37,366 nucleotides of DNA from an uncultured Staphylococcaceae bacterium (GTDB lineage Bacteria; Bacillota_I; Bacilli_A; RFN20; CAG-826). Location: positions 1 through 37,366 of the forward strand of contig CAZKHP010000002.1 in the NCBI GenBank assembly GCA_964552695.1. Reading direction: 5' to 3'. The number at the start of each line of letters is the position of its first letter. Position 1 is the stretch's first letter. Shown in pieces: positions 2,624 to 23,730 of the stretch. Below the pieces are notes generated by a model. It made no database searches and was not told where the DNA came from. It saw only the letters and a list, made by a program, of their open reading frames with translations. The translations under genes and the position numbers were made by a program.

Positions 2624-4639
2624 TTAGGAGAGCTTGTTTTCATTTAAAGCGCGAATGAATGAAGACACAATATTTGGGTCAAGAAGCGACCCTGCGCACT
2701 TATTCATTTGTTGGATGGCTTCGTCTTGACTGCAGGGGACCGTTTTATCGATAGGATTCACGCATTTATCATAGAAATTTAAGACCGCGAGAACGCGTGC
2801 ACGGAAGGGGATGCGGTCGCCCGAAAGGCCGCACGGATATCCTGTTCCGTCATAGCGTTCATGGTGGGACAAAACATCGAGAGCAACATCGGAATACACA
2901 CCTGAGGCAGACAAAATTTGATAACCGATTTCGACGTGTTTCATGGAGACGTCATGCCCATTCACGGCTTCAATCCAGGACGGCTTCTCATCCATCGCCG
3001 CGATGCCGATTTTTCCGATTTCGGAAAGGCGCGCCAGTGTTTTCAAAGGCTTGATTTCAAGGTCGTTTAAACCTAGGTAGCGGGCAAACATGACCGCGAG
3101 TTCCGAAATCCGTTGAGCATGCTGTTCCTCTAAAGGATAAGAGGCAAAAAACCTCTTCTCAATCGTTAGAACTAAATAATTTTGACGTTTATGCAAGAAA
3201 ACAAACTTGTCTTCATACATTTTCTTTTCGGCTTCAGCGATAATTTCTTGAATGTTTCCATCTTTGTTTTTGACTGCACAACCAAAGGCTACGGAAACGG
3301 CAAATTCACCCAACTTAAAGCAGCTGATATCAGCCTTGAAGTCATTTATCATTTTTTGAACGGATTCAATATTGGAATTGGCGATAAAAAAGAGAAACTC
3401 GTCGCCGCCGGTTCGGAAGAAAGCAAGTGAATCCTTGAAGATTCTATAAATTTTCTGGGTCACTTCGACGATGACGCGGTCACCGGTTTCATGGCCAAAA
3501 CCATCGTTGATCAATTTTAAGTCGTTGATGTCGGCCATAACGACCACCAAAGGCCAATGAGAGGATGCATCGATTTCGGCAATTTTTTCGTTAAAGAAAC
3601 GGCGGTTCAAAAAGCCTGTTAAGCCATCCCGGTAACTTTTTTCAAGAATCAGTTTTTCGTATTGTTTTTGTTCTGAAATGTCTTGAAAGAAAACGGTAGC
3701 GCCTATGATTTCATTCCGTTTGTTTTTTAAGGGCATGACTTTGCAGTCGTAAGTCAGATTATCGGGCAGTTCTTGCTCAAAGTGAACGTTGTCGCCCTTA
3801 AAGACTTTCTCAAAGAGAACGCCGATATCGCGGTTCAATATTCTGGAAATAGCTTCGATTTGTAAGGGATCATTGATATGGATTTCTTTTCTTAATTCAT
3901 CTTTAATGGTTTGCGCGTGCGTGCTGTTAAAGGAAATATAACGTCCCTTGGTATCAATCGAGAAAATGTTGATGTTCGAGGCAACGTCGATACTGGCTTG
4001 GAGCATCAGTTCGGATTGCTCCAATTTTCGCAAGTTTTCGACTCTGTTTTTTTGGTACAAAAGCGGCAAACATGCAATTAATGAAAACAGAGGGAACAGG
4101 GCTAAAATCAAGGGGATGAGGAACCAAGCGTTTTGGAATAAATTCGGAGTGAAAAATGGGACAATATTAAAGAGTAGTATCACTGCATTGATAAGACCAA
4201 AAACATAAAATTCGAGCAAACGGTTTGGTTTGTTCTTTTTCCAAATAAAACGCCAAACCAATCCCAAGAGCGAGGAAGTTGCTATGCCAAGCGATCCGGG
4301 AACCATTCCGGAACCGCCCATAACGAAGATGCGGTACATAATTCCAATGACCGCGCTGATGGCAACGGAAATGGGGCTGAAGAAAAGACCGGCCGTGCTA
4401 AAAATGATGGAACGCGTATCCAAACGCAATTCGGTCACATCATCGAGGATGAACCCGTTAAACATAATGTAAACGGCAGCAGCCCCTAAAACGATTCCGG
4501 AAACAATGTCGAAAAGTTTTTTGTGAGATTTCAGTGTAATGTTTCCAGCGATATAAATGTAACAAATGGCAAAAAGAATGACGACGTTTTCAATGATTTT
4601 CAATAACAAGCCAGTCAACCATGGGACATTCGTCAACAT
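2624..4639 (-). CDS. Membrane sensor with 5TM (LytS-type) N-domain, PAS, GGDEF diguanylate cyclase domain and a C-terminal HD-GYP domain with a degenerate HD motif
   Basis: Multi-TM N-terminus and a PAS-like middle region. The GGDEF domain is LTGFLNRRFF...DINDLKLINDGFGHETGDRVI...FRTGGDEFLFF. The HD-GYP domain is HAQRISE...LSEIGKIGI...HHERYDGTGYPCGL, with SE in the position of the canonical HD in HDIGK. I chose the start at M13 (GAGAGGTAATTATG RBS), because the predicted promoter lies over the track's upstream ATG at 4675. Confidence 0.88.
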   Translation of the reverse strand: MLTNVPWLTGLLLKIIENVVILFAICYIYIAGNITLKSHKKLFDIVSGIVLGAAAVYIMFNGFILDDVTELRLDTRSIIFSTAGLFFSPISVAISAVIGIMYRIFVMGGSGMVPGSLGIATSSLLGLVWRFIWKKNKPNRLLEFYVFGLINAVILLFNIVPFFTPNLFQNAWFLIPLILALFPLFSLIACLPLLYQKNRVENLRKLEQSELMLQASIDVASNINIFSIDTKGRYISFNSTHAQTIKDELRKEIHINDPLQIEAISRILNRDIGVLFEKVFKGDNVHFEQELPDNLTYDCKVMPLKNKRNEIIGATVFFQDISEQKQYEKLILEKSYRDGLTGFLNRRFFNEKIAEIDASSHWPLVVVMADINDLKLINDGFGHETGDRVIVEVTQKIYRIFKDSLAFFRTGGDEFLFFIANSNIESVQKMINDFKADISCFKLGEFAVSVAFGCAVKNKDGNIQEIIAEAEKKMYEDKFVFLHKRQNYLVLTIEKRFFASYPLEEQHAQRISELAVMFARYLGLNDLEIKPLKTLARLSEIGKIGIAAMDEKPSWIEAVNGHDVSMKHVEIGYQILSASGVYSDVALDVLSHHERYDGTGYPCGLSGDRIPFRARVLAVLNFYDKCVNPIDKTVPCSQDEAIQQMNKCAGSLLDPNIVSSFIRALNENKLS

Positions 4640-4665
4640 AATTACCTCTCGCTGAATTCCCCATA

Positions 4666-4694
4666 ATTTTATCATGGAAAAAAAACATTTTCAA
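4666..4694 (-). promoter_or_regulatory. Sigma-A-type promoter of the GGDEF/HD-GYP gene
   Basis: Minus strand: TTGAAA - 17 nt - TAAAAT, with a TG at the extended -10 position (TGATAAAAT). The -35 box lies in the 3' arm of the preceding terminator. Confidence 0.55.
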
Positions 4695-4732: not shown

Positions 4733-5458
4733 TTAATCGTGTTCGGATAGTTCTTGGAAAAGTGTTGAAATGATATTGCCGATCAAGGGTTCGGTTTCAA
4801 GCCCTTTACGTATAAAGTTCAATAATTCATCTTTGTGACCAATGACATAGCTGATGGATTTTAAAGCAATCCAAGGGATATCAAAAGCACGGCAGGCAAG
4901 CGCCACTCCTCCAAGCTCGGTATCAAAGGCATCGATGCCGTCGACATAGGCATAGTGGTGATTAATCAAGCTTTCAGCTTTTACTCGGTCGGTATAAAAC
5001 TTGTTCGTCGACATGACGAATCCACGGGCCAAACTCTTATTGGTCATTTTTTTACCAATAGTTTCAATTTGCAAAAGATAATCATCTTCGGAAAGAAAGA
5101 ATTGCGGCATGGCGGCAATTTGACCGTATTTAATGCCATTTCCCCAGGGGGTAAAATCCACACCTCCCAAGTACACACGGTCGGCCATATAAAGATCGCC
5201 TTGTTTGAGGTTCTCATCAAAGGCGTGAAGCGAGCCCACATTTAAAACAAAATAGGGGTGATACTTATCGATGCAAAGACCGGTGATCATCGCAGCCAAA
5301 GAATTCGATAATCCAGTGGTCGATACAGCAACCTGTTTTCCCGAATACTTTCCTAAAAAAACCTCGGTTTTGCCAGCGATTTTTTCGACATAGGAAATAT
5401 CCATTTTGGTCCGGAAATAGAGAATATCATCATCTGTTGCGCCCAGAATCAGGATCAT
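4733..5458 (-). CDS. MTA/SAH-nucleosidase-like protein (PNP_UDP_1 fold), divergent active site
   Basis: 241-aa ORF. By eye it aligns with Pfs/MtnN: ILILGATDDD vs IGIIGAMEEE, FDTELGG vs VEMEATA, and WIALKSISYV vs FVVVRAISDV. The catalytic Asp of the ISD motif appears to be replaced by Tyr. Its start overlaps the EAL gene stop (TAATG). Confidence 0.6.
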   Translation of the reverse strand: MILILGATDDDILYFRTKMDISYVEKIAGKTEVFLGKYSGKQVAVSTTGLSNSLAAMITGLCIDKYHPYFVLNVGSLHAFDENLKQGDLYMADRVYLGGVDFTPWGNGIKYGQIAAMPQFFLSEDDYLLQIETIGKKMTNKSLARGFVMSTNKFYTDRVKAESLINHHYAYVDGIDAFDTELGGVALACRAFDIPWIALKSISYVIGHKDELLNFIRKGLETEPLIGNIISTLFQELSEHD

Positions 5459-7032
5459 TAAAAGGACTTCCTTTCGAATCGATTTTTCTTGATGAAAATT
5501 ACGTATTCATCGTTGGGTAGAGGCCTACTATAATAATAGCCTTGAATGGCATCACAAGCCAGTTGCTCTTTCAAGATCTGAACCTGCTTCTTGCTTTGAA
5601 TACCTTCGGCGACCGCTTTCATTTCCAAAGCATGGGCCAATTTGATGATGGCTTTAACGACCTCGCGGGCCTTGGCATCCACTTCGATATCATCCAAGAA
5701 AGATTTATCGATTTTGATGGAGTTGACCGGCATGCGTTTGAGTGAGCTCATCGAGGAATAACCGGTTCCAAAGTCATCAATCGCCACTTGAATATTAAGC
5801 CCTTGAATTTGTTTCAGAATGGATAAGATGAAAAGGTTATCTTTTGCGGTTGCCGATTCGGTAATTTCCATTTCCAAAAGGAGCGGGTTTACTTTGTATT
5901 TGTCCAATGTGGCTTTCATAAAGTCGATCAAGTCAGTTTTGAAGATGGATTTCCGGGAAAGGTTAACCGAAATCGGAAGCAAACGTTCGCCCTTAGCTTT
6001 CCAGTTGGCGATATCCTGACACGCCATCTCAAAAACGTAACGGTCGATGGCGATGATCAGCTCTGATTGCTCGGCAAATGGGATGAAAGCGGCGGGAGAA
6101 AGAATTCCTTTCTTCGGGTGGCGCCAACGGATCAATGCTTCGGCCGAGAAGAAACGGTCAAGATTTAAATCGTACTTAGGCTGGTAGAAAAGTTCAAATT
6201 CGTGGTTTTTCATACCTTGGACGATTTCTTCGTAAAGCGGAAGGTCGTTGGTCCCGGCATTTTCAAGGGTTTGTTTATCATAAACGATGATGCCGCCGTG
6301 TTCGTTAAAGTTTCCGTAATCGCACGCCATGAGCGAACGACGGAGCATCTCTTCGGGACTCGTGTTCGGTTCGGTATGGAAATAGACGCCATAGGCAAAA
6401 TCACGGCCGATTTGTAGACTATTTTTTTCCAAACACTTTTTAATGTCCTCTTTGATACGGTCCAAAATCGGGTTGATATCATCCTCGCGCGTATAGCGCA
6501 CATAGAGTAAGAAATTTTCGTTAAAATCGTACCCGTAGAAGGAGTCGGGGATCTCGGCTAAGTTTTCTTCGACCACACCGAAGACCAGGGCGGGTACTTC
6601 GGAACCCATTTTGTAGCCTAATTGACTGATGGCGTCCTTTTTAATTTTATAGATTGAAAAGCTAACAACCGCGCCATGATTAATATCAAAATCGCGGATA
6701 TTTGCAAGGTTTTCTAAAAACTGCGGTTCCGATTTTGCGTTTTTTAAGGTGGTGAATTTTTTCGGGTTAAAACGGACCGAGGTTGTCTTTTTGGCTCGTC
6801 CGATTTCGAGCGAAACCATGATGTAACTTGAAACCAGAAATAAACCTGTCAAAAGTGAAAAAACAAGTGCCCAAGAGGGACGGATGGCCCCATTAAAAAA
6901 GCCCACCAAGAAAAGCACGACATAACTGATCGTTAAGACACCCAAAAAGATCACAAACACGAGGTTGATTGTTTTGCGAAATTTGGGTTCTTCGAACAGC
7001 CTAGTCTTTTTTTGTTTGATCAAGGGGGGCAA
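5458..7032 (-). CDS. Membrane-anchored c-di-GMP phosphodiesterase (degenerate GGDEF-like region plus intact EAL domain)
   Basis: Two N-terminal TM helices. The EAL signature set is present: AEALIRWRHP, SVNLS, EMEITES, AIDDFGTGYSS, IKIDKSF, AEGIQ, QGYYYSRP. The track start is TTG 7032. A second TTG at 7023 has better spacing to AAAGAGG. Either start overlaps the end of the sipW-like gene. Confidence 0.88.
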   Translation of the reverse strand: MPPLIKQKKTRLFEEPKFRKTINLVFVIFLGVLTISYVVLFLVGFFNGAIRPSWALVFSLLTGLFLVSSYIMVSLEIGRAKKTTSVRFNPKKFTTLKNAKSEPQFLENLANIRDFDINHGAVVSFSIYKIKKDAISQLGYKMGSEVPALVFGVVEENLAEIPDSFYGYDFNENFLLYVRYTREDDINPILDRIKEDIKKCLEKNSLQIGRDFAYGVYFHTEPNTSPEEMLRRSLMACDYGNFNEHGGIIVYDKQTLENAGTNDLPLYEEIVQGMKNHEFELFYQPKYDLNLDRFFSAEALIRWRHPKKGILSPAAFIPFAEQSELIIAIDRYVFEMACQDIANWKAKGERLLPISVNLSRKSIFKTDLIDFMKATLDKYKVNPLLLEMEITESATAKDNLFILSILKQIQGLNIQVAIDDFGTGYSSMSSLKRMPVNSIKIDKSFLDDIEVDAKAREVVKAIIKLAHALEMKAVAEGIQSKKQVQILKEQLACDAIQGYYYSRPLPNDEYVIFIKKNRFERKSF

Positions 7033-7810
7033 CCTCTTTCTTGGCTTCTTCTTCCATTTCCTTGCGAATGCGTTCCTTTTCCATTTCTTTGATAATGGAA
7101 AGTTTCTCTTGTTCTTTTATTTTAACAAACTCTTCATCGGATAACTCTTCTTCTGATAAAACTTTTTGGGCCGTTTCATTTTCTTCTGGCCGCATCTTGG
7201 CCGCCTTGACGAAATCCACGATTGAACTGGCAAAAACTGCTCCTAAAGGAATCAACACCAAAAACAGGGTGGTAATCGGGCTAGAGAAGAACTTTGAGAA
7301 AGCTCCCAAAGCGGCGCTCGAAGAGATGACTTTTCCCATGACAAATTCTTCGGGAACAAGATCGGAGTTGGCAAGCGTGCAACCTTGCGTTGGGCAGGTT
7401 TGGGCGTTTAAATTGTCCCCCAAACATTTGAAGGTCAAGGTGCCATCGCCATCATCGATAATTTCAATAATACGGTGAGTGATGATCAAGGAATCGTTGG
7501 TCCGGAAAAAGGTAATAATGTCGCCGTCTTTCGCTTCTGGAGTCGTAGAAGCCACAAGGGTATGCACGTCGACTTTTTTGACGATGACACCATTGCCGAC
7601 CGGAAGTTCGGGCTCCATGGAATCGGTCAAAACGACAAAGGATTGATAACCTAAGAAGGAACTGACACCAAAATTGTTGCGGGCCGAAATGAATCCGGTA
7701 ACTTGGACCACCAGTAACAATCCGACAAATGTTCCCAGAACCCAAGTGAGGATTTTCCCGAACAATGACTTCTTGGTTTTTACTTCTTTTTTCTCAACCT
7801 TTGTTTCCAT
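7001..7810 (-). CDS. sipW: SipW-type (ER/archaeal-type, S26B) signal peptidase I with an extra C-terminal Lys/Glu-rich cytoplasmic tail
   Basis: N-terminal TM helix. Ser box VVLTDSMEPELPVG, His box IITHRIIEI, GDNLN box, and a second TM helix (ITTLFLVLIPLGAVFASSIV). These are followed by a ~60-aa tail EEELSDEEFVKIKEQEKLSIIKEMEKERIRKEMEEEAKKE. RBS GAAGGAACAAATCATG. Confidence 0.82.
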   Translation of the reverse strand: METKVEKKEVKTKKSLFGKILTWVLGTFVGLLLVVQVTGFISARNNFGVSSFLGYQSFVVLTDSMEPELPVGNGVIVKKVDVHTLVASTTPEAKDGDIITFFRTNDSLIITHRIIEIIDDGDGTLTFKCLGDNLNAQTCPTQGCTLANSDLVPEEFVMGKVISSSAALGAFSKFFSSPITTLFLVLIPLGAVFASSIVDFVKAAKMRPEENETAQKVLSEEELSDEEFVKIKEQEKLSIIKEMEKERIRKEMEEEAKKEVAPLDQTKKD

Positions 7811-7822
7811 GATTTGTTCCTT

Positions 7823-9229
7823 CTATTTTTTCGTGGTTATAGCGGCTTTTTTAATCTTCAAACGAGTAGCTTTGAGACGGGCTTGTTCTTCCGCAATACG
7901 TTTGGCAGCAGCAGCCTTGGCGGCTTTGCGTTCGGCCTCCAATAATTTCTTTTTCTTTTGTTCTTCTTGAAGCAAACGTTTCTTTTCCAAGAGAGCTTCT
8001 TTGGCAAGGCGTGCTTTCTCTTTCTCTCGTTCTTTTTTCTCCAAAGCTCTTTGAATGGCCCGTTCCTTTTTCTCCAAAGCAAGGGCGATTTGACGCTCTT
8101 TTTCTTTTTCCTTGCGAATTCTCGCCTTTTCTTTTTCAATCTCACGCTTTTTCTGACGTTGAAGTTGCGCTTCGGTCATTTTGCGTAAAGCGACCGGCTT
8201 GTTTCCCATACGATCCATGAAACGATCGTCGGCGATATCGCGGTCCAAAATGGGTTTGACGAAACGGGGCGAAATTTGATACTTCGAAGCCTTCTTGTCA
8301 TCCAATTTGGCTTTTTCAGTTTTCAAGGTCAGATAGTTGCTCAGAATGAGCGTATAGATTTGGGTGAGGTATTCGTTATTGAAATCCATTTTTCTTTCTT
8401 TAACGGAATAGGTCACGCCTAAGGCGTCGTAACGACCGATGAAAAGCCAAAGCTGATACGCGGCACGATAGTCTGGGTTGCTGCGGATCATGTTGGTTTG
8501 AGAAATTTTACCAGAAACTGGAGGCGCTTTTTTTAAAGCTCTCATAAAAGGAGAGTTCACTAAGTATGTGACGCGTTGTCTTAATGTTTTTAAACGGGCA
8601 AGCAAGTCATCGTTAGCCGCCCTTTGTCCTTCATCGTCGCTGGGAACGACGAGTTTCATCTTGGTTTCAATCTCATATTTTGCTCCGCCGATGGGAACGA
8701 TGGCCTTGAGGGTCATCATGTCGCTGTCGGTGGTGTCGCCGTGTTCGTCAATGTAGCGATAACGCATTTCCACGAACAATGCCAACTTACGAATCAAGGT
8801 CATTACGAAACGGTTTTCGTAAATGGCCAATTCTTCTTCGACGAAGGTACCTAAAATCTTGTCAGGAATGACATCACCTTTGGCGTTGATTTCTTTAACA
8901 AGTTCACTATGCTGGGAAAGGTGTTGAATGGCTTTTGAACCGGTTTTTTTGGCCAATTCGACAGGAACGACGCTGTATTCTTCGCGAATGAATTGGCGTG
9001 GGTTTTTAACAATCCGTTCCAACGGGTGCAGAGAGTGTTCGACTTCGGAAATGAATTCGGCATCGAATCGTTTGCTTTCTTTCCGCATGATGCCACCGAT
9101 TTGGGTCTTGGGGGCAGCCTTTATTTCCTTCAACATGTGCGTAAAAGACTTATCACTCGACACAATCTTGTTGAGTCGTTTGTGATACTTCTTTTTCAGT
9201 TTGTCGACGGTCAATGCTTTGGTTGCCAT
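7823..9229 (-). CDS. Hypothetical soluble protein, partner of the McrB-like NTPase; ~330-aa globular region plus ~130-aa Lys/Glu/Ala/Arg-rich predicted coiled-coil tail
   Basis: 468-aa ORF sitting 11 nt downstream of the AAA+ gene and 12 nt upstream of sipW. No TM segment and no signal peptide. No PD-(D/E)xK motif recognisable by eye. The tail is QRQKKREIEKEKARIRKEKEKERQIALALEKKERAIQRALEKKEREKEKARLAKE... Confidence 0.7.
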   Translation of the reverse strand: MATKALTVDKLKKKYHKRLNKIVSSDKSFTHMLKEIKAAPKTQIGGIMRKESKRFDAEFISEVEHSLHPLERIVKNPRQFIREEYSVVPVELAKKTGSKAIQHLSQHSELVKEINAKGDVIPDKILGTFVEEELAIYENRFVMTLIRKLALFVEMRYRYIDEHGDTTDSDMMTLKAIVPIGGAKYEIETKMKLVVPSDDEGQRAANDDLLARLKTLRQRVTYLVNSPFMRALKKAPPVSGKISQTNMIRSNPDYRAAYQLWLFIGRYDALGVTYSVKERKMDFNNEYLTQIYTLILSNYLTLKTEKAKLDDKKASKYQISPRFVKPILDRDIADDRFMDRMGNKPVALRKMTEAQLQRQKKREIEKEKARIRKEKEKERQIALALEKKERAIQRALEKKEREKEKARLAKEALLEKKRLLQEEQKKKKLLEAERKAAKAAAAKRIAEEQARLKATRLKIKKAAITTKK

Positions 9230-9240
9230 AAAGTTCCTGA

Positions 9241-10761
9241 TTAACTCATCTTAATGTATTTTTCGAGCACGGTGCGCGATTGTTTAAAAGCGCCCTTACC
9301 GAAGAGTTTATCCAATTCGTTGAGCAATTGGTTCATTTCGTCGTGCAAGAAGGCTAAGTTTAACGTCACGAATTTTTTCAAAATCTTGCTTGAGAAAATG
9401 TAATCCATGGCTTCAATGTCGGTTCCTCCGCAGGCGACGTAGGTCGGAACGAAGATTTTCATTTGTTTGATGATACGGTTACCAAACGCGATATTGAATT
9501 TTCCAACGATGAATGCGTCGAGTTTTGCGAACTTATTCAGCAAATCCTCGGACATCGGATAATTCGTTCTGGCTTCTTGGAAAAGCTTATCGAGGTATTG
9601 GAAAGGAAGAGGCATGGATTCGGTGAATGGGCAGTCGAAGGCAACGCCTTTTCCGGAGAATTCAAGCGACATGGCACGGTCGTAGACTTTATCGGTAATG
9701 GTGAACGTGGAGTCATCGTTGTTGGCGGTACCGATGAACCAAAGGTTTTGCGGAATCAGAAGTTTGCCTTCGTTCAAGTGCTTCGGGTCTCCCGCTTCGG
9801 GTTTGTTAGAAATTTCGATTTTCCATTCGGCCACGTTCGGCATTTCCATGATGGACAAGAATTCGGCAAAGTAATATTCGATACGCGCTAAGTTCATTTC
9901 ATCGAGAATGATGAGGTTGTTGTCTTCGCGGTACGTAGCTTCATAAACAGCCTTCAAAAAGTCGGTTTCGTTGAATTTTTTAGAGAATTCGTTGTAATAA
10001 CCGATCAGTTCGCTGCGGTCACGCCACGACGGTTGAACCGAACAAATCTTCGTATCGTTTTGGAAGAATTTGCCTAAAGCGTAAGGTAAAGAAGTTTTAC
10101 CAGTACCGGAGATACCTTCGAGAATCAACAATTTCGAAGTTCCCATGCCGGCGAAGAAGGTACGAAGTGTTTTTTGATCGTAATACAGCTTCATTTGCGA
10201 AGCCGCAAAGTTGCGGAATTTGTTGACTAATTGATCCAGAGAAATATTGGCATCTGCTTCCAAAATCTCGACATGCGTGTTGTAGGTCGTGTATTTGAAA
10301 TCGACGGCTGAAAGTTTGGGAAAGCGGGAATTGGTGAAGTTCGCTTCGGATTCAGGTTTAGGTTGCCCTGGCGGAATTCCTAACGAACCTACTTTCAAGT
10401 TGAGAATTTCGTTTTTCTCCATGACGGCAGTGTAGAGTTGATCATTTAATTCTTGAACTTGTTTGACCAATTTTTGCCGATCCAGACGGCCGTTGTTATA
10501 GGCGATGAACCGTTTGATGACAAAGTAAGCCAAATAGATTAGGCCGCCCAAAAGTGCTAACCAAAGCAAATTGAAAAGGACAAAGAAAAACCAGCCCCAG
10601 AATCCAAATCCATTGATATAGGCATTCAAAATATCGCTGTAATTTCGGAAATTACCGGGAACGGAGCTCCAGGGAATGCCGAAGGTTTCCTTAAAAAACA
10701 GACCGAGATCTTTAAAGAATGCCTCAAATAATTCGCGAATGTAACTGAAGAAATCTTGCAT
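9241..10761 (-). CDS. Membrane-anchored McrB-family (AAA_5-type) AAA+ NTPase
   Basis: Hydrophobic segment GFGFWGWFFFVLFNLLWLALLGGLIYLAYFVI near the N-terminus, then a coiled-coil-like stretch. Walker A LILEGISGTGKTS, Walker B LIILDEMNLARIEYYFAEFLSIME, and a McrB-like signature WFIGTANNDDSTFTITDKVYDRA (compare IIGTMNTADRS...RRF in McrB). Confidence 0.78.
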   Translation of the reverse strand: MQDFFSYIRELFEAFFKDLGLFFKETFGIPWSSVPGNFRNYSDILNAYINGFGFWGWFFFVLFNLLWLALLGGLIYLAYFVIKRFIAYNNGRLDRQKLVKQVQELNDQLYTAVMEKNEILNLKVGSLGIPPGQPKPESEANFTNSRFPKLSAVDFKYTTYNTHVEILEADANISLDQLVNKFRNFAASQMKLYYDQKTLRTFFAGMGTSKLLILEGISGTGKTSLPYALGKFFQNDTKICSVQPSWRDRSELIGYYNEFSKKFNETDFLKAVYEATYREDNNLIILDEMNLARIEYYFAEFLSIMEMPNVAEWKIEISNKPEAGDPKHLNEGKLLIPQNLWFIGTANNDDSTFTITDKVYDRAMSLEFSGKGVAFDCPFTESMPLPFQYLDKLFQEARTNYPMSEDLLNKFAKLDAFIVGKFNIAFGNRIIKQMKIFVPTYVACGGTDIEAMDYIFSSKILKKFVTLNLAFLHDEMNQLLNELDKLFGKGAFKQSRTVLEKYIKMS

Positions 10762-10771
10762 TCATTTGCCC

Positions 10772-11872
10772 TCACTTTTTCAGGGCTATGGGCTCGTTGG
10801 GTGCCCGATAGCGACCGGTTAATCGAAGCGATAATAAGAAGCTGGCGCGTTCTACGAAATCGTTATTGTCGCGGTCCCACCCTTCGGAATAGACCGTAAC
10901 CACCATGCGTACCGGGGTGTTTTCGGGAAGATACGCAAGCGCGCTTCCGAGAAGTTCTTTGTCCGATAGTTCGGTTGTGGTTTTACTTGTTTCGCGTCCT
11001 AAGACAAGGCCGTTTTCGATGGAAGAATCCAAGTCGATGGGAAGAACGCTACCGTAGGTGGAAGCATTGAAGGTGGTCAAGGGTTCCGTGGCGGTTGCAC
11101 GACCGTTTTCGGAATATACGATTTTGCTTGGATCATCCATTTCCCCGAAGAGAATCTCACGATAAGCATCGATTTCACCGTTGAAATCATAGAAGCCATC
11201 TCGGGCAAGGATGTCGAGGCGCCCGGCAAAGAGTGTAGTCGATGCCGTGTCGGTGTTGGGTTCCCAGATATTAAACCCAAAGGGGGAAAGGAAGCTCACA
11301 CGCATGCTTTTGTGAACATTATTTAAAGCCTCTTCGTTTCCGGCAGGACTTTCAGCGTTCTTTGCACTGTCCGGAAGAAGGGTGGCACTATCATCGAGAT
11401 AGAGATACATATCCATGTTCGACTTGAAATAAAATTCAAATTGGAAGAATCCGGAGTTCGCGATGTTGGAATCCGTGGTGTTGTTATACGTGGTAAATCC
11501 TTCGCGGAGTACTGGCCGTAAGGTGGGGTCGGATAAATCGGTGGATTCATTCAACCAACGGCTTTGGAACATCGAAGAAACAGGGCTTAAGGTGCTCTCG
11601 GGGTTAAAATAGCCGTAATCTACGAGATTTTCTTCACTCAATTCATCAAAGAATTGAATATCTCCGGCATTTCCGAGTTCGGGGTGATTTTCAGGGACGA
11701 TCAGACCGATTTTTAAATCATCCGCTCCGCCATAAGTTACTTTGAACGTATCGAGGGTGACCGCATTGGCAGACGCAAACCAAGCAAAAGTTCCCGTGAT
11801 TAACCCGCTTAAAGCGAGTAAACCGACGACGGAATTGATGATGAGGTTTCTTTTGTTGCGAAGTGCGTTCAT
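10772..11872 (-). CDS. Secreted SipW-signal paralog P7 (366 aa), TasA/camelysin-like fibre-subunit candidate
   Basis: N-terminus MNALRNKRNLIINSVVGLLALSGLITGTFAWFASANAV. C-terminal block VTVYSEGWDRDN, a variant of the W-x-E-G-x-D motif. RBS AAAGGA. Confidence 0.7.
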   Translation of the reverse strand: MNALRNKRNLIINSVVGLLALSGLITGTFAWFASANAVTLDTFKVTYGGADDLKIGLIVPENHPELGNAGDIQFFDELSEENLVDYGYFNPESTLSPVSSMFQSRWLNESTDLSDPTLRPVLREGFTTYNNTTDSNIANSGFFQFEFYFKSNMDMYLYLDDSATLLPDSAKNAESPAGNEEALNNVHKSMRVSFLSPFGFNIWEPNTDTASTTLFAGRLDILARDGFYDFNGEIDAYREILFGEMDDPSKIVYSENGRATATEPLTTFNASTYGSVLPIDLDSSIENGLVLGRETSKTTTELSDKELLGSALAYLPENTPVRMVVTVYSEGWDRDNNDFVERASFLLSLRLTGRYRAPNEPIALKK

Positions 11873-11888: not shown

Positions 11889-12977
11889 TTATTTTTGGGA
11901 AACGAACTTTAAGTCGGCACCGAACGTGGCGGCGATGACCTGAGTGGTACATGCATGGTCCCAACCCTCGAGCCAAATGGTCATATTGATTTCCGCTACG
12001 CCCAGATCGTTGGTTGTGGCCAACGGAGTTCCAAGCGGGCTGTACTTTGATATGGGATTGTAGGTAGCGGTTTTGGGAATGGCATTGACCAGTGGAGAAG
12101 CCCACATAAAGCTTTGAGCTTCATAGAAATATTGGTTTTCTTTGTTCGGTTCAACATAGATTCCGCTGGGTGTGCCCCAATTGTCTTCGGTTAATTCGTT
12201 TTCGAATTCTCCATAGGCGATTTCGTAGTACTTTCCGGCAGCGTTCCAACTGGTGGTGTGATCGTAGATGCCGTTGCCATCGAAATCCATGCGTCCTCCG
12301 ACGTCGATGGACCCGGCTTCTTTGGCGGCCGGAGCAATGATGTCGGTGATTTCATCGGTTTGAATGCCCATGCGCAGAGCTTGGGTGACGTTTTTGGATC
12401 CGATGAAGCGCATGCCATAATCGAAATAGATGTGATAGCCAGCAACTCCTTGAGTATCGTCGTTGGGATTGTCTTGGCTGACACGTGCCATCCGGAACAG
12501 AAGCGAGAAGCCAACATAATTGGAGCGGTTGGCGACCGTATCGATGGGGCGTAACCGTCCCCCGTTAACCGGGGATGAAACGGAGTGCTCGTAAAGCGTG
12601 ATGTCGTCACCTTCCTGATAACTCCCGCTGGTCAAAGGAAGTACTGTATGATTCGCAGAGTATCCCTCGCGCGCGTATAAAAAATCGAACGTTTCGGGCT
12701 CAATCTCCGTATCCGTCCAATAAACATACCCTTCACCGGGTATGTTGTGCGTATCGGGCGTGAAATTATACCGATGCCGTTCTTCTTCGGTCAAAATATG
12801 GCTGACTCGGAAACCCATTTGGAGCGTATCGCCTTCGCCGCGTAAAGTGCCGCTGACGGTTGCGCCCGTGAGGTCTATGACCTCAAACCATGCAAAAGTC
12901 CCCGCGGTTACAGCCAGGGCGGAGATGATGAAAGAAGTCGCCATCAAGGCTATTTTGCTTTTATTTTGCATGATCAA
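11889..12977 (-). CDS. Secreted SipW-signal paralog P6 (362 aa), fibre-subunit candidate
   Basis: N-terminus ...KSKIALMATSFIISALAVTAGTFAWFEVIDL. C-terminal block MTIWLEGWDHAC. The track start is TTG 12977; an ATG lies two codons downstream at 12971. Confidence 0.7.
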   Translation of the reverse strand: MIMQNKSKIALMATSFIISALAVTAGTFAWFEVIDLTGATVSGTLRGEGDTLQMGFRVSHILTEEERHRYNFTPDTHNIPGEGYVYWTDTEIEPETFDFLYAREGYSANHTVLPLTSGSYQEGDDITLYEHSVSSPVNGGRLRPIDTVANRSNYVGFSLLFRMARVSQDNPNDDTQGVAGYHIYFDYGMRFIGSKNVTQALRMGIQTDEITDIIAPAAKEAGSIDVGGRMDFDGNGIYDHTTSWNAAGKYYEIAYGEFENELTEDNWGTPSGIYVEPNKENQYFYEAQSFMWASPLVNAIPKTATYNPISKYSPLGTPLATTNDLGVAEINMTIWLEGWDHACTTQVIAATFGADLKFVSQK

Positions 12978-12998: not shown

Positions 12999-13853
12999 TT
13001 AGGCTTCGCTGGTTTCGTCGAGAAGGGCAGAGATGACCATGCCGAAGAGCATGCTGGCTCCGACAGGAGGCAGGTAGGTGCAGTCGGGATCATCGCCTTC
13101 AAGCCAAATCACGATGGTGTAGCGGATAACGACATCCGGATCAAGATGCAGGTAATTGTAGTTCACGATATTGCTGGCAGATTCAAACACTTCCGCCCGG
13201 ACACTGTTCTCAGGCTTTGAGGCGCTGCAGGTATAGGGAGGAACGCTTAAACCATTTCCGACACACTCGCCATTGATGCGCGTGTTATTGTCATCGTAAA
13301 TTGCATAGTTCGTGGTTTTTGCAAAGGTGCGGTAATTGTGTGTGACTTCTTCACCCACGACATTTTCATAAAGACGCACACGGATGTATTCTTCGATAGG
13401 AACGGCACCCTCAATGATGTTTTCTCCCTGACTTAACGACAAGGTTGCCGAGAAGTCGACCGGAGCATTGCCTTGGTTCTTTAAAAAGAAGGTGTAGGCA
13501 AAATAGGTGGAATACATGAGGATGCCATCCTCATCATAAACATCTCCGTTATGCGATCCCAGACCATTGACATCGTCCAGGACTTCGTGCGCGGGTAAAT
13601 AATCAACTGATTCCGCACGGGCAGCGTCGAGGTTTGAGGCCCGAAGCAAACTCGTTTTTTTGGTAAAGTTCGCGTCCGTCGATATGGTGAGTGACGCGCG
13701 GTTCTGTTCAAGCTCAACGGTGTACCGACCGATATTGGTCCCCAGGTAGGAGATTATGACGAAAGTAGCAATGGTTAATGCGCTTGCGGCGGAAACGATT
13801 GCTGCGATTTTTCGTCTTTTCCTTGTTTGGGCGTACTCAGTTGGGTAGATCAT
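12999..13853 (-). CDS. Paralog P5 (284 aa) with a divergent N-terminus, probably uncleaved; membrane-anchor or base-subunit candidate
   Basis: First gene after riboswitch 1. The N-terminus is MIYPTEYAQTRKRRKIAAIVSAASALTIATFVIISYLG, with a basic stretch and a TM helix; ATFVII replaces GTFAWF. It retains the family C-terminal block IVIWLEGDDPDC and a camelysin-like FFLKNQGNAPVDF strand. Confidence 0.65.
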   Translation of the reverse strand: MIYPTEYAQTRKRRKIAAIVSAASALTIATFVIISYLGTNIGRYTVELEQNRASLTISTDANFTKKTSLLRASNLDAARAESVDYLPAHEVLDDVNGLGSHNGDVYDEDGILMYSTYFAYTFFLKNQGNAPVDFSATLSLSQGENIIEGAVPIEEYIRVRLYENVVGEEVTHNYRTFAKTTNYAIYDDNNTRINGECVGNGLSVPPYTCSASKPENSVRAEVFESASNIVNYNYLHLDPDVVIRYTIVIWLEGDDPDCTYLPPVGASMLFGMVISALLDETSEA

Positions 13854-14018: not shown

Positions 14019-14101
14019 AAATAAAAATAGATGCTAACCAATCATTGCCCGGAACTGGGAAGTACTACTCTCATTCCATTTTTGGCAACTGGCTACCATC
14101 T
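14019..14101 (-). terminator. Expression-platform terminator of riboswitch 1
   Basis: On the minus strand, AGAUGGUAGCCA-GUUGCC (the 3' part of the aptamer) can pair with GGCAAU-(GAU)-UGGUUAGCAUCU. That gives about 18 bp with one G-G mismatch and one 3-nt bulge. The 34-nt apical region has its own GGAAG/CUUCC hairpin. The stem is followed directly by AUUUUUAUUUC. Confidence 0.6.
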
Positions 14102-14162
14102 CTCGTTTGAGTTAGGCCCTATAGCTTTGCGTCGCTAAGTTTCCTTAGTTTTGCTATTGTCA
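14084..14162 (-). promoter_or_regulatory. c-di-GMP-I (GEMM-I) riboswitch aptamer, copy 1
   Basis: The minus-strand RNA is UGACAAUAGCAAAACUAAG-GAAA-CUUAGCGACGCAAAGCUAUAGGGCCUAACUCAAACGAGAGAUGGUAGCCAGUUGCC. It carries the GEMM-I hallmarks: GCAAA(A)C, a hairpin capped by a GAAA tetraloop, ACGCAAAGC, a CCUAAC...GAUGG segment resembling the 11-nt tetraloop receptor, and GGUAGC. By eye it aligns with the Vc2 aptamer. Confidence 0.82.
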
Positions 14163-14168
14163 ACATCC

Positions 14169-14196
14169 ATTATAGAGGTTTTTGCGTTTCTGTCAA
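14169..14196 (-). promoter_or_regulatory. Consensus sigma-A-type promoter driving riboswitch 1 and the ~9.5-kb operon
   Basis: Minus strand: TTGACA (14196..14191) - 16 nt - TATAAT (14174..14169). The aptamer starts within about 10 nt downstream. Confidence 0.75.
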
Positions 14197-14583: not shown

Positions 14584-14970
14584 CTACTTTTTGGCTTCTT
14601 TAGCCTTAGCTTCTTCCATTTCCTTGAGAATCTCTTCGCGGGCTTGTCTTTTGGCTTCAGCAATAAGTTCTTCGTTCGAAAGCGTCGACTTTTTTGCTTT
14701 GTTTTCGTTGTAGAGCGTTTTGATCAGCAAATAGATGTTGAGGAAGAAAAGCGTAATCAACGGAAGGACGATCAGGATGAACATCCAAGCCGGGTTAGCT
14801 TGCAGCCAGGAGATGAACTTCATGAAGGCGCCAGCTTCGGCAGGGATGATGTTGGTGGCGAACATGGCGAACAAGGAGACTGTAAGCAAGAAAACGATGA
14901 CCACAATTTCAGCGACCACTAAAATGGTCGATAGCGACTTATTTTTTCCGGACAGTAATCCTTTACTCAT
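14584..14970 (-). CDS. Small two-TM membrane protein with a Lys/Glu-rich C-terminal tail
   Basis: 128-aa ORF with RBS AGGAGAATTAAAATG. Two hydrophobic helices, then the tail NEELIAEAKRQAREEILKEMEEAKAKEAKK. That tail resembles those of the SipW-like peptidase and the 468-aa protein. Confidence 0.7.
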   Translation of the reverse strand: MSKGLLSGKNKSLSTILVVAEIVVIVFLLTVSLFAMFATNIIPAEAGAFMKFISWLQANPAWMFILIVLPLITLFFLNIYLLIKTLYNENKAKKSTLSNEELIAEAKRQAREEILKEMEEAKAKEAKK

Positions 14971-15088: not shown

Positions 15089-15997
15089 TTACGCAGCGAC
15101 ACCGTAGATGTCAATGCTGAAATCGAAGACTCCGCCGAGGGCGCCGCCACCAGCAGTGACGTTTTCGCATTCGGGATCTTCGCCTTCAATCCAGGCGCGG
15201 ATCGTGATGTCATCGGAGTAGTCGGGAGTGGCAGCGTCGGTACCATAGAGGGTAACGATCGGTTTGACGTGAGCGGCGGTGGCAAGAGCGGTCGTGGTGT
15301 AAGTGGTCAACGAACCGGCGTGGAAGTTGTCGGTATCATCGAAAGCAGCGGTTTGGGCGACCGAATCAAAACCAGAAACGGTTTTCCAAGTTTTGGCAGC
15401 ATCAGCTTTAACATATTTGTATGCGGCATCGTCAGCATCCGGTGTCCAAATGAAGACTGGGACGTTGGCTTCGTCAAGAATCGCAATGCGGGCGCAGTTA
15501 ACGGCCGCTTCATCTTGAGGATCATCCGCAGTGTGCGGGGTGATCGTGGTGGCTCCGCCAACATAGACGTTCATGTTGCCGGTAGCAACGGAACTTTGAG
15601 AAATCGTCAAGGTAAAGTCGACATAATATCCATCGGCAGCGCCAATACCCGAGGTAAGAAGGGTGGTCACGCTATCGGCCGTGGAAGAATCGGTATCAGC
15701 AGAGTTCCAAATGGGTTTGTAGAAGTTCGCACCATTACCGGAAATATCGGTAATTCTGTGAACGCCGGAAACGGAAATGTTTTGTTCGTCAGCGGATTGG
15801 TGGGCGACAGTGGTCAGTAAGCTGGATTTCCAAGCAACGGTCAAGTCAGATGAGCTCGAATAGACTTCGGCGGACGAATAGTTGATTTGAGCATTACGAA
15901 CGGTTGTGAACCAAGCGAACGTGGAAGCCGAGGCGGCAGCAGCTGTCAGAACGAGCATGCCGGCGGCACTAATTAAAATCTTATTCTTCTTATTCAT
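15089..15997 (-). CDS. Secreted SipW-signal paralog P4 (302 aa), monocistronic; major-subunit candidate
   Basis: N-terminus MNKKNKILISAAGMLVLTAAAASASTFAWFTTVRNA. Mature part is rich in Ala/Thr/Ser/Asp. C-terminal block IRAWIEGEDPEC. Very strong RBS GAGGAGGATTTTATTCATG, with its own promoter and terminator. Confidence 0.75.
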   Translation of the reverse strand: MNKKNKILISAAGMLVLTAAAASASTFAWFTTVRNAQINYSSAEVYSSSSDLTVAWKSSLLTTVAHQSADEQNISVSGVHRITDISGNGANFYKPIWNSADTDSSTADSVTTLLTSGIGAADGYYVDFTLTISQSSVATGNMNVYVGGATTITPHTADDPQDEAAVNCARIAILDEANVPVFIWTPDADDAAYKYVKADAAKTWKTVSGFDSVAQTAAFDDTDNFHAGSLTTYTTTALATAAHVKPIVTLYGTDAATPDYSDDITIRAWIEGEDPECENVTAGGGALGGVFDFSIDIYGVAA

Positions 15998-16384: not shown

Positions 16385-17227
16385 TTAAGAGATATTGACT
16401 GACAACTCGGTGATTGAGAATGAGAGATTTTTATAGACATTGGATGTTCCTTCGACATCGGAAAAGTAATAATCATGACCGCTACTGGTATAAGAATAGG
16501 AATAATACGTTGATGGTGCATTGCTGAATTCGATCGTAAAAAAGAAAATGATTTTATCCGCTGGAACTTCATCAAAATCGAGAACATCTTGCGCGAGGGT
16601 AATGTTGGAAGGTCCGGATGCAGCTGTTTGATTGAAACGATCGGTTTGACTGGTCGATGTCACAAACGCATTGGCTCCGGTTGTAATGCTGCCGCTATTG
16701 CCATCGATCGCCGTGGAATAAACATTGATTGCCTGCGCGAGGTTAATCGGGGTATTGGTGGTTGCGTTGTAGAACGTCGTGGACGGAACCGCAACGTAGT
16801 CGGTGAGCCTTAAAAACACGGTTTTATCAATAGCAAAATCGCCGGTCACTTCCAAAGCATAGGTAAATCGAAGACTGGGGTATTGCGCATTGATGATGAC
16901 GGTTTGAATGCCGTTCAGATAGGGATCTTCGCTGATTGGCAGGAATTGCGTATCGTAATTGTCGACCGTGACGATATCCGAAGGACTAAGAGCAACTTCT
17001 GGGCTTTGGTACCCATTGGGCGTTCCGTTGGAACCATAGTTCTTGGTGAAGTATTTGAGTTCGTAGGAAATATCGCCGGAGGCTTGAACGGTCATGGCGG
17101 TCACCCCGGCCTCCCGTTTAAACGAAAACCAGGCATAGGTCAAGTATAAAAAGGATGTCAAAGAAATCGCCGCCGACAACGTGGTGATCACCAAATTGAT
17201 CTTCAGTTTTTTCGATGTCAATGCCAT
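16385..17227 (-). CDS. Secreted SipW-signal paralog P3 (280 aa)
   Basis: N-terminus MALTSKKLKINLVITTLSAAISLTSFLYLTYAWFSFKRE. It lacks the W-x-E-G-x-D block. It starts 2 nt after the stop of the 759-aa gene. Confidence 0.68.
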   Translation of the reverse strand: MALTSKKLKINLVITTLSAAISLTSFLYLTYAWFSFKREAGVTAMTVQASGDISYELKYFTKNYGSNGTPNGYQSPEVALSPSDIVTVDNYDTQFLPISEDPYLNGIQTVIINAQYPSLRFTYALEVTGDFAIDKTVFLRLTDYVAVPSTTFYNATTNTPINLAQAINVYSTAIDGNSGSITTGANAFVTSTSQTDRFNQTAASGPSNITLAQDVLDFDEVPADKIIFFFTIEFSNAPSTYYSYSYTSSGHDYYFSDVEGTSNVYKNLSFSITELSVNIS

Positions 17228-17229
17228 CG

Positions 17230-19509: not shown

Positions 19510-19521
19510 GGCGTCTCCTTT

Positions 19522-20409
19522 CTATGCGTAAATGGGTGAGTTGGAATACGAAATGTTCAAGTTGAAATCGATACCGAAACGAAGTGGATAGCTTAAAAGC
19601 GTTGGATTAGCCCGAACGAAGGACTGGAATAAGGCTCCATCCATGCTTAATTCGATCATGAGGCTGGTTGCAAAAACAAAGTTCCCGGAAACTTTGGTCG
19701 CGAATTTGGGAATGAAGGATTGATTGGCCAACCCGGTTGTATTCGTCACGGGAGAACCGGAAAGATCACTGGCATCGAAAAGGGTAATACCACTGGTTCG
19801 TTGCCCGGAGGTTCTAAAGAAACTTGCCAGAGTTTTCGCTTCCAAAGCCGGAATTTGCGAAGGGAAAGCCGAAACCATCGGGCTTGAAGGACTATTGTCA
19901 ACTGCCACATAACGGTAATTGAAAGGGTAAGCCGTTGAAAAATTGAGCTCGCTGGACGTTGCGGTGGGAATGGAGACATATTGCATATTGGCAGTCACAT
20001 AACCATAACGGTCGGGTTGGATGAAACGAAGTTCGAGATAATAAGTCGGTAACCCCGGAACGTAATAAGCGTTTTCGTTGTAATAAGCTCGCGTCAAAAG
20101 GTAATCGGTTGCAAGAGCATTTGAAAAGTCAACATTCACTTGGCCGTTGGTCAGTGAGCTTTGGGTAACGTTCAATCGATCGGTTTGATCGACATAATAA
20201 GCTACTTCGGAAGTACTGGGAGTTTCGCCATAGCGCCGTTCATAAATGTGGGCTTCGATGGTTACTTCGGAATTTCCCGTTGAAAGAGCCACCATGTTGG
20301 TGACGGAGCGACTGTATTTGATCCACGCAAAAGTAGCGCTTGTTAATGCAAGTGCACTGGCCACAAGGGCAATGGTGGTTGTCATAATCAGTTTGCTTTG
20401 TGGTTTCAT
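19522..20409 (-). CDS. Secreted SipW-signal paralog P1 (295 aa), first gene after riboswitch 2
   Basis: N-terminus MKPQSKLIMTTTIALVASALALTSATFAWIKYSRS. The RBS AAGAGG lies immediately after the riboswitch terminator U-tract. Confidence 0.68.
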   Translation of the reverse strand: MKPQSKLIMTTTIALVASALALTSATFAWIKYSRSVTNMVALSTGNSEVTIEAHIYERRYGETPSTSEVAYYVDQTDRLNVTQSSLTNGQVNVDFSNALATDYLLTRAYYNENAYYVPGLPTYYLELRFIQPDRYGYVTANMQYVSIPTATSSELNFSTAYPFNYRYVAVDNSPSSPMVSAFPSQIPALEAKTLASFFRTSGQRTSGITLFDASDLSGSPVTNTTGLANQSFIPKFATKVSGNFVFATSLMIELSMDGALFQSFVRANPTLLSYPLRFGIDFNLNISYSNSPIYA

Positions 20410-20422
20410 GGGACCTCTTCGG

Positions 20423-20467
20423 AAATAAAAAAGCAGCCGCTACCATTCACTTAGGCAACTGGCTACC
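20423..20467 (-). terminator. Expression-platform terminator of riboswitch 2
   Basis: Minus strand: GGUAGCC(A)GUUGCC-UAAGUGAAU-GGUAGCGGCUGCU, about 13 bp with one bulged A, followed by UUUUUAUUU. The 5' arm is the 3' end of the aptamer. Confidence 0.75.
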
Positions 20468-20532
20468 TCTTAATCTTTGGAGGCCCTTTAGCTTTGCGTC
20501 GCTAGATTACTCTAGGTTTGCTATTTACTAAC
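20454..20532 (-). promoter_or_regulatory. c-di-GMP-I (GEMM-I) riboswitch aptamer, copy 2
   Basis: The minus-strand RNA is GUUAGUAAAUAGCAAACCUAGA-GUAA-UCUAGCGACGCAAAGCUAAAGGGCCUCCAAAGAUUAAGAGGUAGCCAGUUGCC. It has the same conserved blocks as copy 1: AAUAGCAAA, CGACGCAAAGCUA, AGGGCCU and GGUAGCCAGUUGCC. The first hairpin shows compensatory changes (CUAGA/UCUAG here vs CUAAG/CUUAG in copy 1). Confidence 0.82.
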
Positions 20533-23578: not shown

Positions 23579-23730
23579 AGATTTTCTTTCTTTTTCTTTA
23601 TTTATTATATTACATCGGTCTTGAACCAAAAGAAGAAACCTGCAAAATTTAGGCTTTTCCGCTTTTTTGCTCACGAACTCATAGATTTTCTACCATGGAT
23701 GAAAGGTATGCGTGATAAAATACAATCATC

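Follow-up and report, generated by a model that had tools for sequence, protein, structure and literature searches.

A membrane-anchored McrB-type GTPase, probably of the CoCoPALM class, in a SipW surface-protein operon preceded by c-di-GMP riboswitches

The window analyzed here is a 37,366-nucleotide stretch of DNA from an uncultured Staphylococcaceae bacterium (contig CAZKHP010000002.1), and the gene that concerns us, at 9241–10761 on the minus strand, encodes a 506-residue McrB-like GTPase. McrBC is the textbook DNA-restriction motor. We think it likely that the GTPase and the McrC-like protein encoded beside it are an McrBC pair minus the restriction parts, of the type called CoCoPALM, and that the pair is fixed in a SipW surface-protein operon that is induced by cyclic di-GMP (c-di-GMP) and probably makes a fibre or pilus. 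A role in this surface-fibre pathway rather than in defence is, in our judgement, quite probable.

Sequence and predicted structure of the GTPase and its partner

The GTPase, its parts and its partner are encoded as follows:

9241–10761, minus strand: McrB-like NxD-clade GTPase, 506 residues (open reading frame with ATG start)
10612–10761, minus strand: residues 1–50, conserved N-terminal segment, modelled by AlphaFold2 as an amphipathic helix (residues 2–28) and a second helix (33–49)
10501–10611, minus strand: residues 51–87, predicted single transmembrane (TM) segment, the sole hydropathy peak and also present in homologues of about 500 residues
10384–10500, minus strand: residues 88–126, predicted helical (coiled-coil-like) cytoplasmic stalk, continuous with the TM helix in the AlphaFold2 model and with a weak heptad pattern
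9244–10323, minus strand: residues 147–506, GTPase module made up of N-terminal helices, AAA+ core and helical lid, with N347-x-D349-D350 and R362
7823–9229, minus strand: McrC-N (DUF2357)-like partner, 468 residues, recognized from DUF2357 in its homologues, an hhalign match to a CnuC-like protein and its AlphaFold2 model

The motifs that a preliminary description of this DNA had read in the GTPase are all present in the 506-residue protein: Walker A (GISGTGKTS) at residues 216–224, Walker B (LIILDEMN) at 283–290, IGTANNDD at 343–350 and DRA at 361–363. In an alignment of 46 GTPase sequences, the most distant of which has 33% identity, no variation is seen at residues G216, G219, G221, K222, T223, D287, N290, N347, D349 and R362, and E288 comes close to this (at least 90%). 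Given that the catalytic residues are kept throughout this alignment, the protein looks like an active NTPase. The short gaps reported on either side of the gene are exact, at 10 nt past the stop codon of 10772–11872 and 11 nt before the start of 7823–9229.

The assignment of the NTPase domain to the McrB family, also proposed in the preliminary description, is supported by sequence comparison. A phmmer search of the PDB with the 506-residue protein gave E. coli McrB as the sole match (E = 2.3e-5, residues 192–381). When the family profile was aligned with E. coli McrB using hhalign, the probability was 96.6% (E = 6.4e-10, 219 columns), and the region containing N347, D349 and R362 was aligned with the NTAD...RRRF of McrB. 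The GTPase scores 20.9 bits against the NCBIfam McrB equivalog model, which has a cut-off of 637, and is therefore not an orthologue of EcoKMcrB. Its score against Pfam AAA_5 (PF07728) is 16.0 bits with a cut-off of 22; the homologue P0006 reaches 25.3 bits, and several homologues bear PF07728 in the precomputed table.

The length and architecture are shared by more than 8000 homologues at the 90% cluster level, which is far beyond chance. At the 50% level, a search of 1.84 billion representatives gave 8439 relatives at E ≤ 1e-3, of which 746 reach E ≤ 1e-30. The signature in the best 150 representatives is G-T-A-N-x-D-[D/E]-S-T, with Asp always at the first acidic position and either Asp or Glu at the second. 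The relatives have three architectures: about 500 residues with one or two N-terminal hydrophobic helices, which is the type found in the window; 550–700 residues with four TM helices, on contigs that are mostly too short for informative gene context; and 700–870 residues with no TM segment. Of the parts of the GTPase listed above, the block of residues 147–506 alone is common to the non-membrane relatives, and the closest TM-less relatives are 40–47% identical over residues 140–504.

One TM-less relative, of 745 residues and with a long N-terminal coiled coil, is found at locus L086 (372–9270), where it comes after two UPF1-like helicase genes and precedes a 650-residue CnuC-like protein. This is a CoCoNuT-type defence context. 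The strongest match of the GTPase in the defence libraries is to the PADLOC defence candidate PDC-M26A (2e-42), because of its kinship with TM-less relatives from CoCoNuT contexts. CoCoNuT (CnuB/CnuC) and PDC-M26 are indeed the closest relatives of the GTPase, and the partner aligns to a CnuC-like protein, but the CoCoNuT proteins have no TM segment, have long N-terminal coiled coils and keep both nuclease and zinc ribbon, and the CoCoNuT-type example examined adjoins helicases. At another locus, L088 (59–8915), a four-TM relative of 614 residues lies between a weakly SipW-like protein of 366 residues and a DUF2357 protein of 464 residues that ends in a zinc ribbon; beyond them are an ABC transporter and a large secreted protein. 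The arrangement could represent a second membrane-linked variant.

A hydrophobic segment followed by a coiled-coil-like linker had been noted ahead of the NTPase domain, and a prediction of TM topology had been suggested. The hydrophobic segment is borne out: residues 51–87 have a Kyte–Doolittle 19-residue maximum of 2.25, there is no other hydrophobic stretch in the protein, and one N-terminal TM segment is predicted. The AlphaFold2 model (mean pLDDT 83.7) has an unbroken helix over residues 54–126, consisting of the TM segment and the stalk, and then a disordered linker (residues 128–137), the AAA+ core and the helical lid. The linker fares less well as a coiled coil, with hydrophobic residues at 7 of 12 a/d positions in the best register, which is weak support from the heptads. 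The conserved leucines of the stalk are L98, L105, L109 and L120.

Four or five Lys/Arg residues are found after the TM segment and one before it. By the positive-inside rule, the NTPase domain is predicted to be in the cytoplasm and the conserved first 50 or so residues outside the cell. The helix of residues 2–28 in this N-terminal segment is strongly amphipathic (hydrophobic moment 1.4, mean hydropathy 0.12), and F5, W31 and Y41 are invariant in 25 sequences.

The 468-residue protein that adjoins the GTPase was left unnamed in the preliminary description. Judged from homology and its predicted fold, it is a nuclease-less McrC homologue in which only the N-terminal domain is kept. Pfam gives no match to the window's own protein. 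PF09823 (DUF2357, the McrC N-terminal domain) is matched by 15 of 29 homologues (best E = 1e-12), and hhalign of the partner family against a CnuC-like protein gives 99.1% (1.7e-18) over partner residues 24–269, with the homology ending at 269. The AlphaFold2 model (pLDDT 79) is a helical bundle with a β-hairpin at residues 167–196, having 14 residues in each strand. Residues 302–352 are disordered, and residues 353–467 form a single 115-residue helix made up of 24% K, 18% A, 17% E and 12% R. There is no nuclease-like sheet in the model past the DUF2357 part, and none of the 29 homologues matches a nuclease Pfam family. Zinc ribbons are found in the C-terminal 385 or so residues of relatives, in the region corresponding to the charged helix of the partner.

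When the partner profile was compared with PDB sequences, it matched only lysine/glutamate-rich low-complexity stretches, and these matches were rejected. The length of the partner ranges from 460 to 2331 residues across species. It reaches 1596–2331 residues in L014 (4599–11594), L071 (9017–15760) and L019 (6556–11346). Past residue 400 the L014 and L071 partners are V/T/S/E-rich, not K/E-rich, and in L014 the DUF2357-like region begins about 400 residues in.

In E. coli, the N-terminal bundle of McrC and its β-hairpin stalk insert into the McrB hexamer and stimulate GTP hydrolysis. The window pair has in common with E. coli McrBC (PDB 6HZ4, 6UT6, 7VSR) the AAA+ GTPase core, the Walker A and B motifs, the Asn/Asp signature and the arginine finger, and its partner appears to derive from the N-terminal activating domain of McrC. 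It differs in having a TM segment and stalk in place of the DNA-binding domain, an NxD[D/E] signature rather than the NxxD of McrB, a partner with no PD-(D/E)xK nuclease, and a location in a structural operon rather than a defence island.

A system of this kind has been named before. CoCoPALM was introduced by Bell, Koonin and colleagues (eLife 2024) in a single paragraph, which links it to pili and leaves its analysis to a later paper (PMC11090510). Our literature search found no follow-up paper on CoCoPALM and nothing relevant on SipW with McrB, and the supplementary text files of the CoCoNuT paper contain nothing on CoCoPALM. In the published account, the NxD variant defines a major branch of the McrB-like GTPases, and CoCoPALM is described as having an N-terminal TM segment and coiled coil that are claimed to be homologous to FtsB, a coiled-coil McrC homologue, and signal-peptidase genes (PMC11090510). 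The window has an NxD-type GTPase with an N-terminal TM segment and helix, an adjacent DUF2357 partner with a charged helix, and a SipW gene. The FtsB homology alone was not reproduced: hmmscan of the GTPase N terminus against Pfam (E ≤ 5) gave only weak generic coiled-coil matches and no FtsB or DivIC. We infer that such homology would need an orientation opposite to that of FtsB for the GTPase to be cytoplasmic. Because all the other published features that can be checked are found, the GTPase is very probably a CoCoPALM member. The riboswitch, the paralogues with SipW-type signals, the Mollicutes-type hosts and the complete absence of a nuclease go beyond the published account; what is new here is riboswitch control, the nuclease loss, the distribution, and the GTPase as the best-conserved gene.

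Gene linkage and c-di-GMP riboswitches

The context of the GTPase gene was compared in 82 loci from other species; 80 loci were fetched from GTDB species representatives and 3 more from metagenomes. The denominators below are the numbers of loci with enough sequence for the feature in question. The partner gene comes directly after the GTPase gene in 67 of 69 loci, the two being separated by −1 to 91 nt. Upstream of the GTPase, 54/58 loci have homologues of the secreted paralogues, a homologue of the SipW catalytic domain is found downstream in 52/60, and a SipW-like gene is immediately upstream in 19/67. The SipW counts were made with the catalytic domain alone as query, since the K/E-rich tail could give false matches.

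The flanking regions that were examined showed no defence genes and no defence-island context. The preliminary description had suggested that the McrB module is repurposed, or at least relocated to the membrane, a suggestion that was to be abandoned if the pair occurred away from sipW and the paralogues and near nucleases or defence islands. The counts point the other way. Given the fixed linkage and the absence of a defence-island context, repurposing with relocation to the membrane is the best reading.

The hosts include Acholeplasma granularum ATCC 19168, other Acholeplasmataceae, Izemoplasmatales and Anaeroplasmataceae, together with many uncultured 'Bacilli' and 'Erysipelotrichaceae' and some Clostridia (Christensenellaceae, Acutalibacteraceae, Ruminococcus, Faecousia). 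The GTPase is 45–48% identical to the Acholeplasma and Clostridia copies. For the partner, most homologues are 25–40% identical and three close relatives 52–84%. By sequence identity, the GTPase is the best-conserved gene of the locus. Six bins that carry the Bacilli-type locus (L016, L034, L008, L023, L044 and L078) bear the names Escherichia coli, Bacteroides uniformis, Hallerella, Paludibacteraceae or Bacteroidales, probably through errors of binning or labelling in the source assemblies.

The operon that contains the GTPase and partner genes is headed by a riboswitch, and a second riboswitch lies further upstream. In the order of transcription, the other features are:

20451–20532, minus strand: second c-di-GMP-I riboswitch, preceding the first paralogue and behind a consensus promoter (20564→20536)
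14169–14196, minus strand: sigma-70-type promoter TTGACA-16-TATAAT (12/12 consensus), just upstream of the next riboswitch
14081–14165, minus strand: c-di-GMP-I riboswitch (Rfam RF01051, 67.1 bits), heading the sub-operon with the GTPase
12999–13853, minus strand: paralogue of 284 residues with an N-terminal TM segment and no FAWF motif, first gene past the riboswitch
11889–12977, minus strand: secreted paralogue of 362 residues with a GTFAWF signal motif
10772–11872, minus strand: secreted paralogue of 366 residues with a GTFAWF signal motif, the gene directly preceding that of the GTPase
7001–7810, minus strand: SipW-type (archaeal-type) signal peptidase I (NCBIfam SipW, TIGR02228)
5458–7032, minus strand: membrane EAL-domain protein (Pfam EAL, 1.5e-67), overlapping the SipW gene by 32 nt and syntenic in most close loci
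4733–5458, minus strand: PNP_UDP_1 (nucleosidase-like) gene, the last conserved gene of the block by synteny

The gene run behind the riboswitch at 14081–14165 thus consists of three paralogues (the first being 12999–13853), GTPase, partner, SipW, EAL protein and nucleosidase. Each of the two riboswitches is followed by a hairpin and a U-run, the 5′ arm of the hairpin overlapping the 3′ part of the aptamer, and the hairpin in the second leader has a ΔG of −22 kcal/mol (z = −4.5). Since a terminator-like hairpin overlaps the 3′ side of the aptamer, both are read as ON switches, and high c-di-GMP is predicted to turn the operon on.

The arrangement is widespread. By a covariance model built from 13 riboswitch instances, 31 of the 35 loci with at least 6 kb of upstream sequence have a same-strand riboswitch there (among them L001, L002, L058, L062, L066 and L076). 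In seven loci it occurs in tandem, for example in Acholeplasma granularum (L058). The window locus is also flanked by EAL and GGDEF/HD-GYP proteins. A literature search found nothing relevant on SipW with a c-di-GMP riboswitch or on Acholeplasma with c-di-GMP. Riboswitch control of the locus is absent both from the preliminary description and from the literature searchable here.

Candidate functions of the GTPase

A specific mechanism, in which the GTPase is an assembly or anchoring motor, can be proposed only tentatively. The GTPase would form a hexameric ring a few nanometres below the membrane, held there by six TM-stalk helices. The hairpin of the McrC-like partner would plug the ring and gate or stimulate GTP hydrolysis, as in McrBC. 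GTP-driven conformational work, or a timed switch, would then pass through the TM helices and the external N-terminal segment of about 50 residues to a membrane-anchored base subunit, to pre-pilins or to SipW. The outcome would be control over how the fibre is started, anchored or processively assembled at the membrane, in an operon that high c-di-GMP would switch on. It is more doubtful, though conceivable, that GTPase, McrC-like plug, SipW and FAWF subunits together make up an unrecognized class of filament-assembly machine, which would work from the cytoplasm, under the control of c-di-GMP, to drive, anchor or retract a Sec/SipW-dependent surface fibre.

The ATPases of type IV pili and archaella (PilB, PilT, FlaI) provide an analogy only, in that a cytoplasmic hexameric NTPase is coupled to an external filament. 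They are secretion ATPases of an unrelated superfamily, not AAA+ McrB; the type IV pilus uses a class III signal and a prepilin peptidase where the window has a SipW-type signal peptidase I, and a PilC-like platform gene is absent from the window locus. The type IV pilus genes of some Clostridia are under c-di-GMP riboswitches.

A number of observations weigh against the explanation that we favour. To our knowledge, the known SipW/TasA fibres and other strand-exchange fibres need no NTPase. TapA-SipW-TasA of Bacillus and SipW-BsaA of Clostridium perfringens resemble the window locus in having a dedicated archaeal-type signal peptidase beside its substrates, and in substrate signal peptides that end in an aromatic-rich motif (TFAWF in the window; TasA is reported in PMC10269814 to have an aromatic residue at P2′). 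They differ in that their operons have no NTPase, and the window substrates match no TasA or camelysin model. Pfam and NCBIfam gave neither TasA, camelysin nor any other family for the paralogues, a profile search of the PDB gave nothing, and a profile search of 5.8 billion proteins gave no TasA or camelysin and 98 homologues without any Pfam domain. Of the TasA/CalY-type fibre operon put forward in the preliminary description, the SipW gene is present, and the paralogues have a SipW-type signal motif but no detectable match to the TasA/CalY family, so that 'TasA/CalY fibre' is an analogy. Given that the paralogues match no known pilin family, the fibre itself is something that we infer.

Structure comparison is a further difficulty. 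HHpred and Foldseek had been suggested as checks on the GTPase. Foldseek of the GTPase model against the PDB gives generic AAA+ proteins (MCM, dynein, MoxR), with McrB outside the top 50, and so does not discriminate. For the partner, Foldseek against the PDB gives nothing at E ≤ 0.001, the best matches being unrelated, and hhalign of the family against E. coli McrC gives no signal. Because these comparisons with E. coli McrC are empty, the McrC link of the partner rests on DUF2357 and on the homology to the CnuC-like protein. The partner was not found beside the GTPase in three Acholeplasmataceae loci, namely L055 and L061, whose downstream sequence extends for at least 1.5 kb, and L073, where only 891 nt are available and the absence is uncertain. 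The placing of the N-terminal 50 residues outside the cell is a prediction. Finally, the class is known by computational work only. At L055, L061 and L073, small genes with a FAWF signal come directly after the GTPase gene.

The GTPase might instead be a GTP-dependent switch or placement factor, following the logic of FlhF or MinD, which sets where, when and how many fibres are made or gates cleavage by SipW, and does no mechanical work. The E. coli McrB GTPase is strongly stimulated by its partner (PMC11090510), which fits such a role. A short stalk and a partner tail of very variable length (460–2331 residues in all) would suit scaffolding or spacing, and strand-exchange fibres assemble with no input of energy. 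It is, however, typical of mechano-enzymes to have an AAA+ ring in which the Walker B glutamate and the arginine finger are intact, and we regard a pure switch as unlikely.

We find it distinctly improbable that the pair is an immune module, that is, a CoCoNuT-like abortive-infection or restriction system that guards the fibre, which would be a likely phage receptor, with the GTPase sensing phage attack at the base of the pilus and setting off a response. Its McrBC ancestry is clear, its nearest non-membrane relatives are CoCoNuT-type, with one examined in a helicase context, and PDC-M26A, its strongest library match, is a defence candidate. However, there is no effector; nuclease, HEPN and other toxic domains are all missing from the partner. 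The synteny is near-invariant and the spacing tight inside a structural operon, the sequence conservation across orders is high (45–60%), unlike that of patchy and fast-evolving defence genes, and control by a c-di-GMP riboswitch suits adhesion or biofilm genes. The flanks of the examined loci, as noted, contain no visible defence genes. It is concluded that defence is the rival least compatible with the data.

A MoxR/RavA-like chaperone ATPase, which would mature or insert another membrane protein encoded here, such as the EAL receptors, be unrelated to McrBC in its mechanics and resemble McrB only through common AAA_5 ancestry, is very unlikely, since the MoxR-type proteins among the top Foldseek matches (CHU_0153, CbbQ, NorQ and RavA, alongside MCM and dynein) and the sub-threshold Pfam AAA_5 score are set against the lack of a VWA-domain partner, the neighbours being a DUF2357 (McrC-N) protein and SipW, against the match by sequence to McrB alone in the PDB, and against an invariant N-x-D-[D/E] signature that is specific to McrB-like GTPases.

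If, as we favour, the McrB-type GTPase acts on the surface fibre, we would have a clear example, of a rare kind, in which a motor from immunity has been domesticated to build the cell surface, and the first NTPase linked to a SipW-type pathway. The GTPase and its activating subunit appear to be kept and the DNA-binding and nuclease parts lost, with the pair in a surface-protein operon; at least 579 GTDB species representatives matched the GTPase search. A domesticated restriction-enzyme motor would be an energy-dependent counterpart of the energy-independent strand-exchange fibres, found widely in wall-less Bacilli of the gut and the environment (Acholeplasma, Izemoplasmatales, RF39-like lineages) and in some Clostridia. 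Many carriers are abundant uncultured gut Bacilli, for which we know of no adhesion apparatus. The c-di-GMP riboswitch for induction, and Acholeplasma granularum ATCC 19168 as a cultured host, provide experimental handles.

Other genes of the window

The SipW gene product matches NCBIfam SipW at 1.4e-18, below the equivalog cut-off, and TIGR02228 at 51.9 bits with a cut-off of 51.85. It is extended at the C terminus by an extra TM helix and a K/E-rich tail. The tail resembles those of the partner and of a 128-residue protein, so that three products of the locus have charged helical tails. The remaining features between the two riboswitches and beyond the second are:

14584–14970, minus strand: 128-residue protein with two TM helices and a K/E-rich tail, with homologues in the same position in at least 25 loci
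15089–15997, minus strand: secreted paralogue of 302 residues with an STFAWF motif and a C-terminal W-x-EG-x-D
16385–20409, minus strand: three more secreted paralogues (280, 759 and 295 residues)
20570–23674, minus strand: membrane protein of 1034 residues with a C-terminal EAL domain, flanking the locus (synteny)

In five paralogues the motif [ST][FY]AW[FI] or [ST][FY]AW[FY] follows the hydrophobic core, and the latter form is also found in the P4 family. A W-x-E-G-x-D terminus is present in the P4-type paralogues and in the 362- and 284-residue paralogues. One paralogue homologue is named 'SipW-cognate class signal p...' by UniRef; the NCBIfam signal model gave no match. A homologue of the 284-residue paralogue is the first recognized gene after the riboswitch in 35 of 42 cases, and this protein is a candidate for a membrane-anchored base subunit. 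The 302-residue paralogue is a possible major subunit. In distant loci, the 128-residue protein also matches the short genes immediately ahead of the GTPase, although this may reflect no more than TM or low-complexity similarity.

The locus is flanked on its downstream side by a 5TM-LYT/PAS/GGDEF/HD-GYP protein (2624–4675, minus strand). Two flanking genes are on the plus strand. One is a 449-residue open reading frame (23731–25080) that, from reading the sequence by eye, we take to resemble a family 1 glycoside hydrolase; the other (31873–34515) encodes a large surface protein in which CBM_4_9 and Ig-like domains are present.

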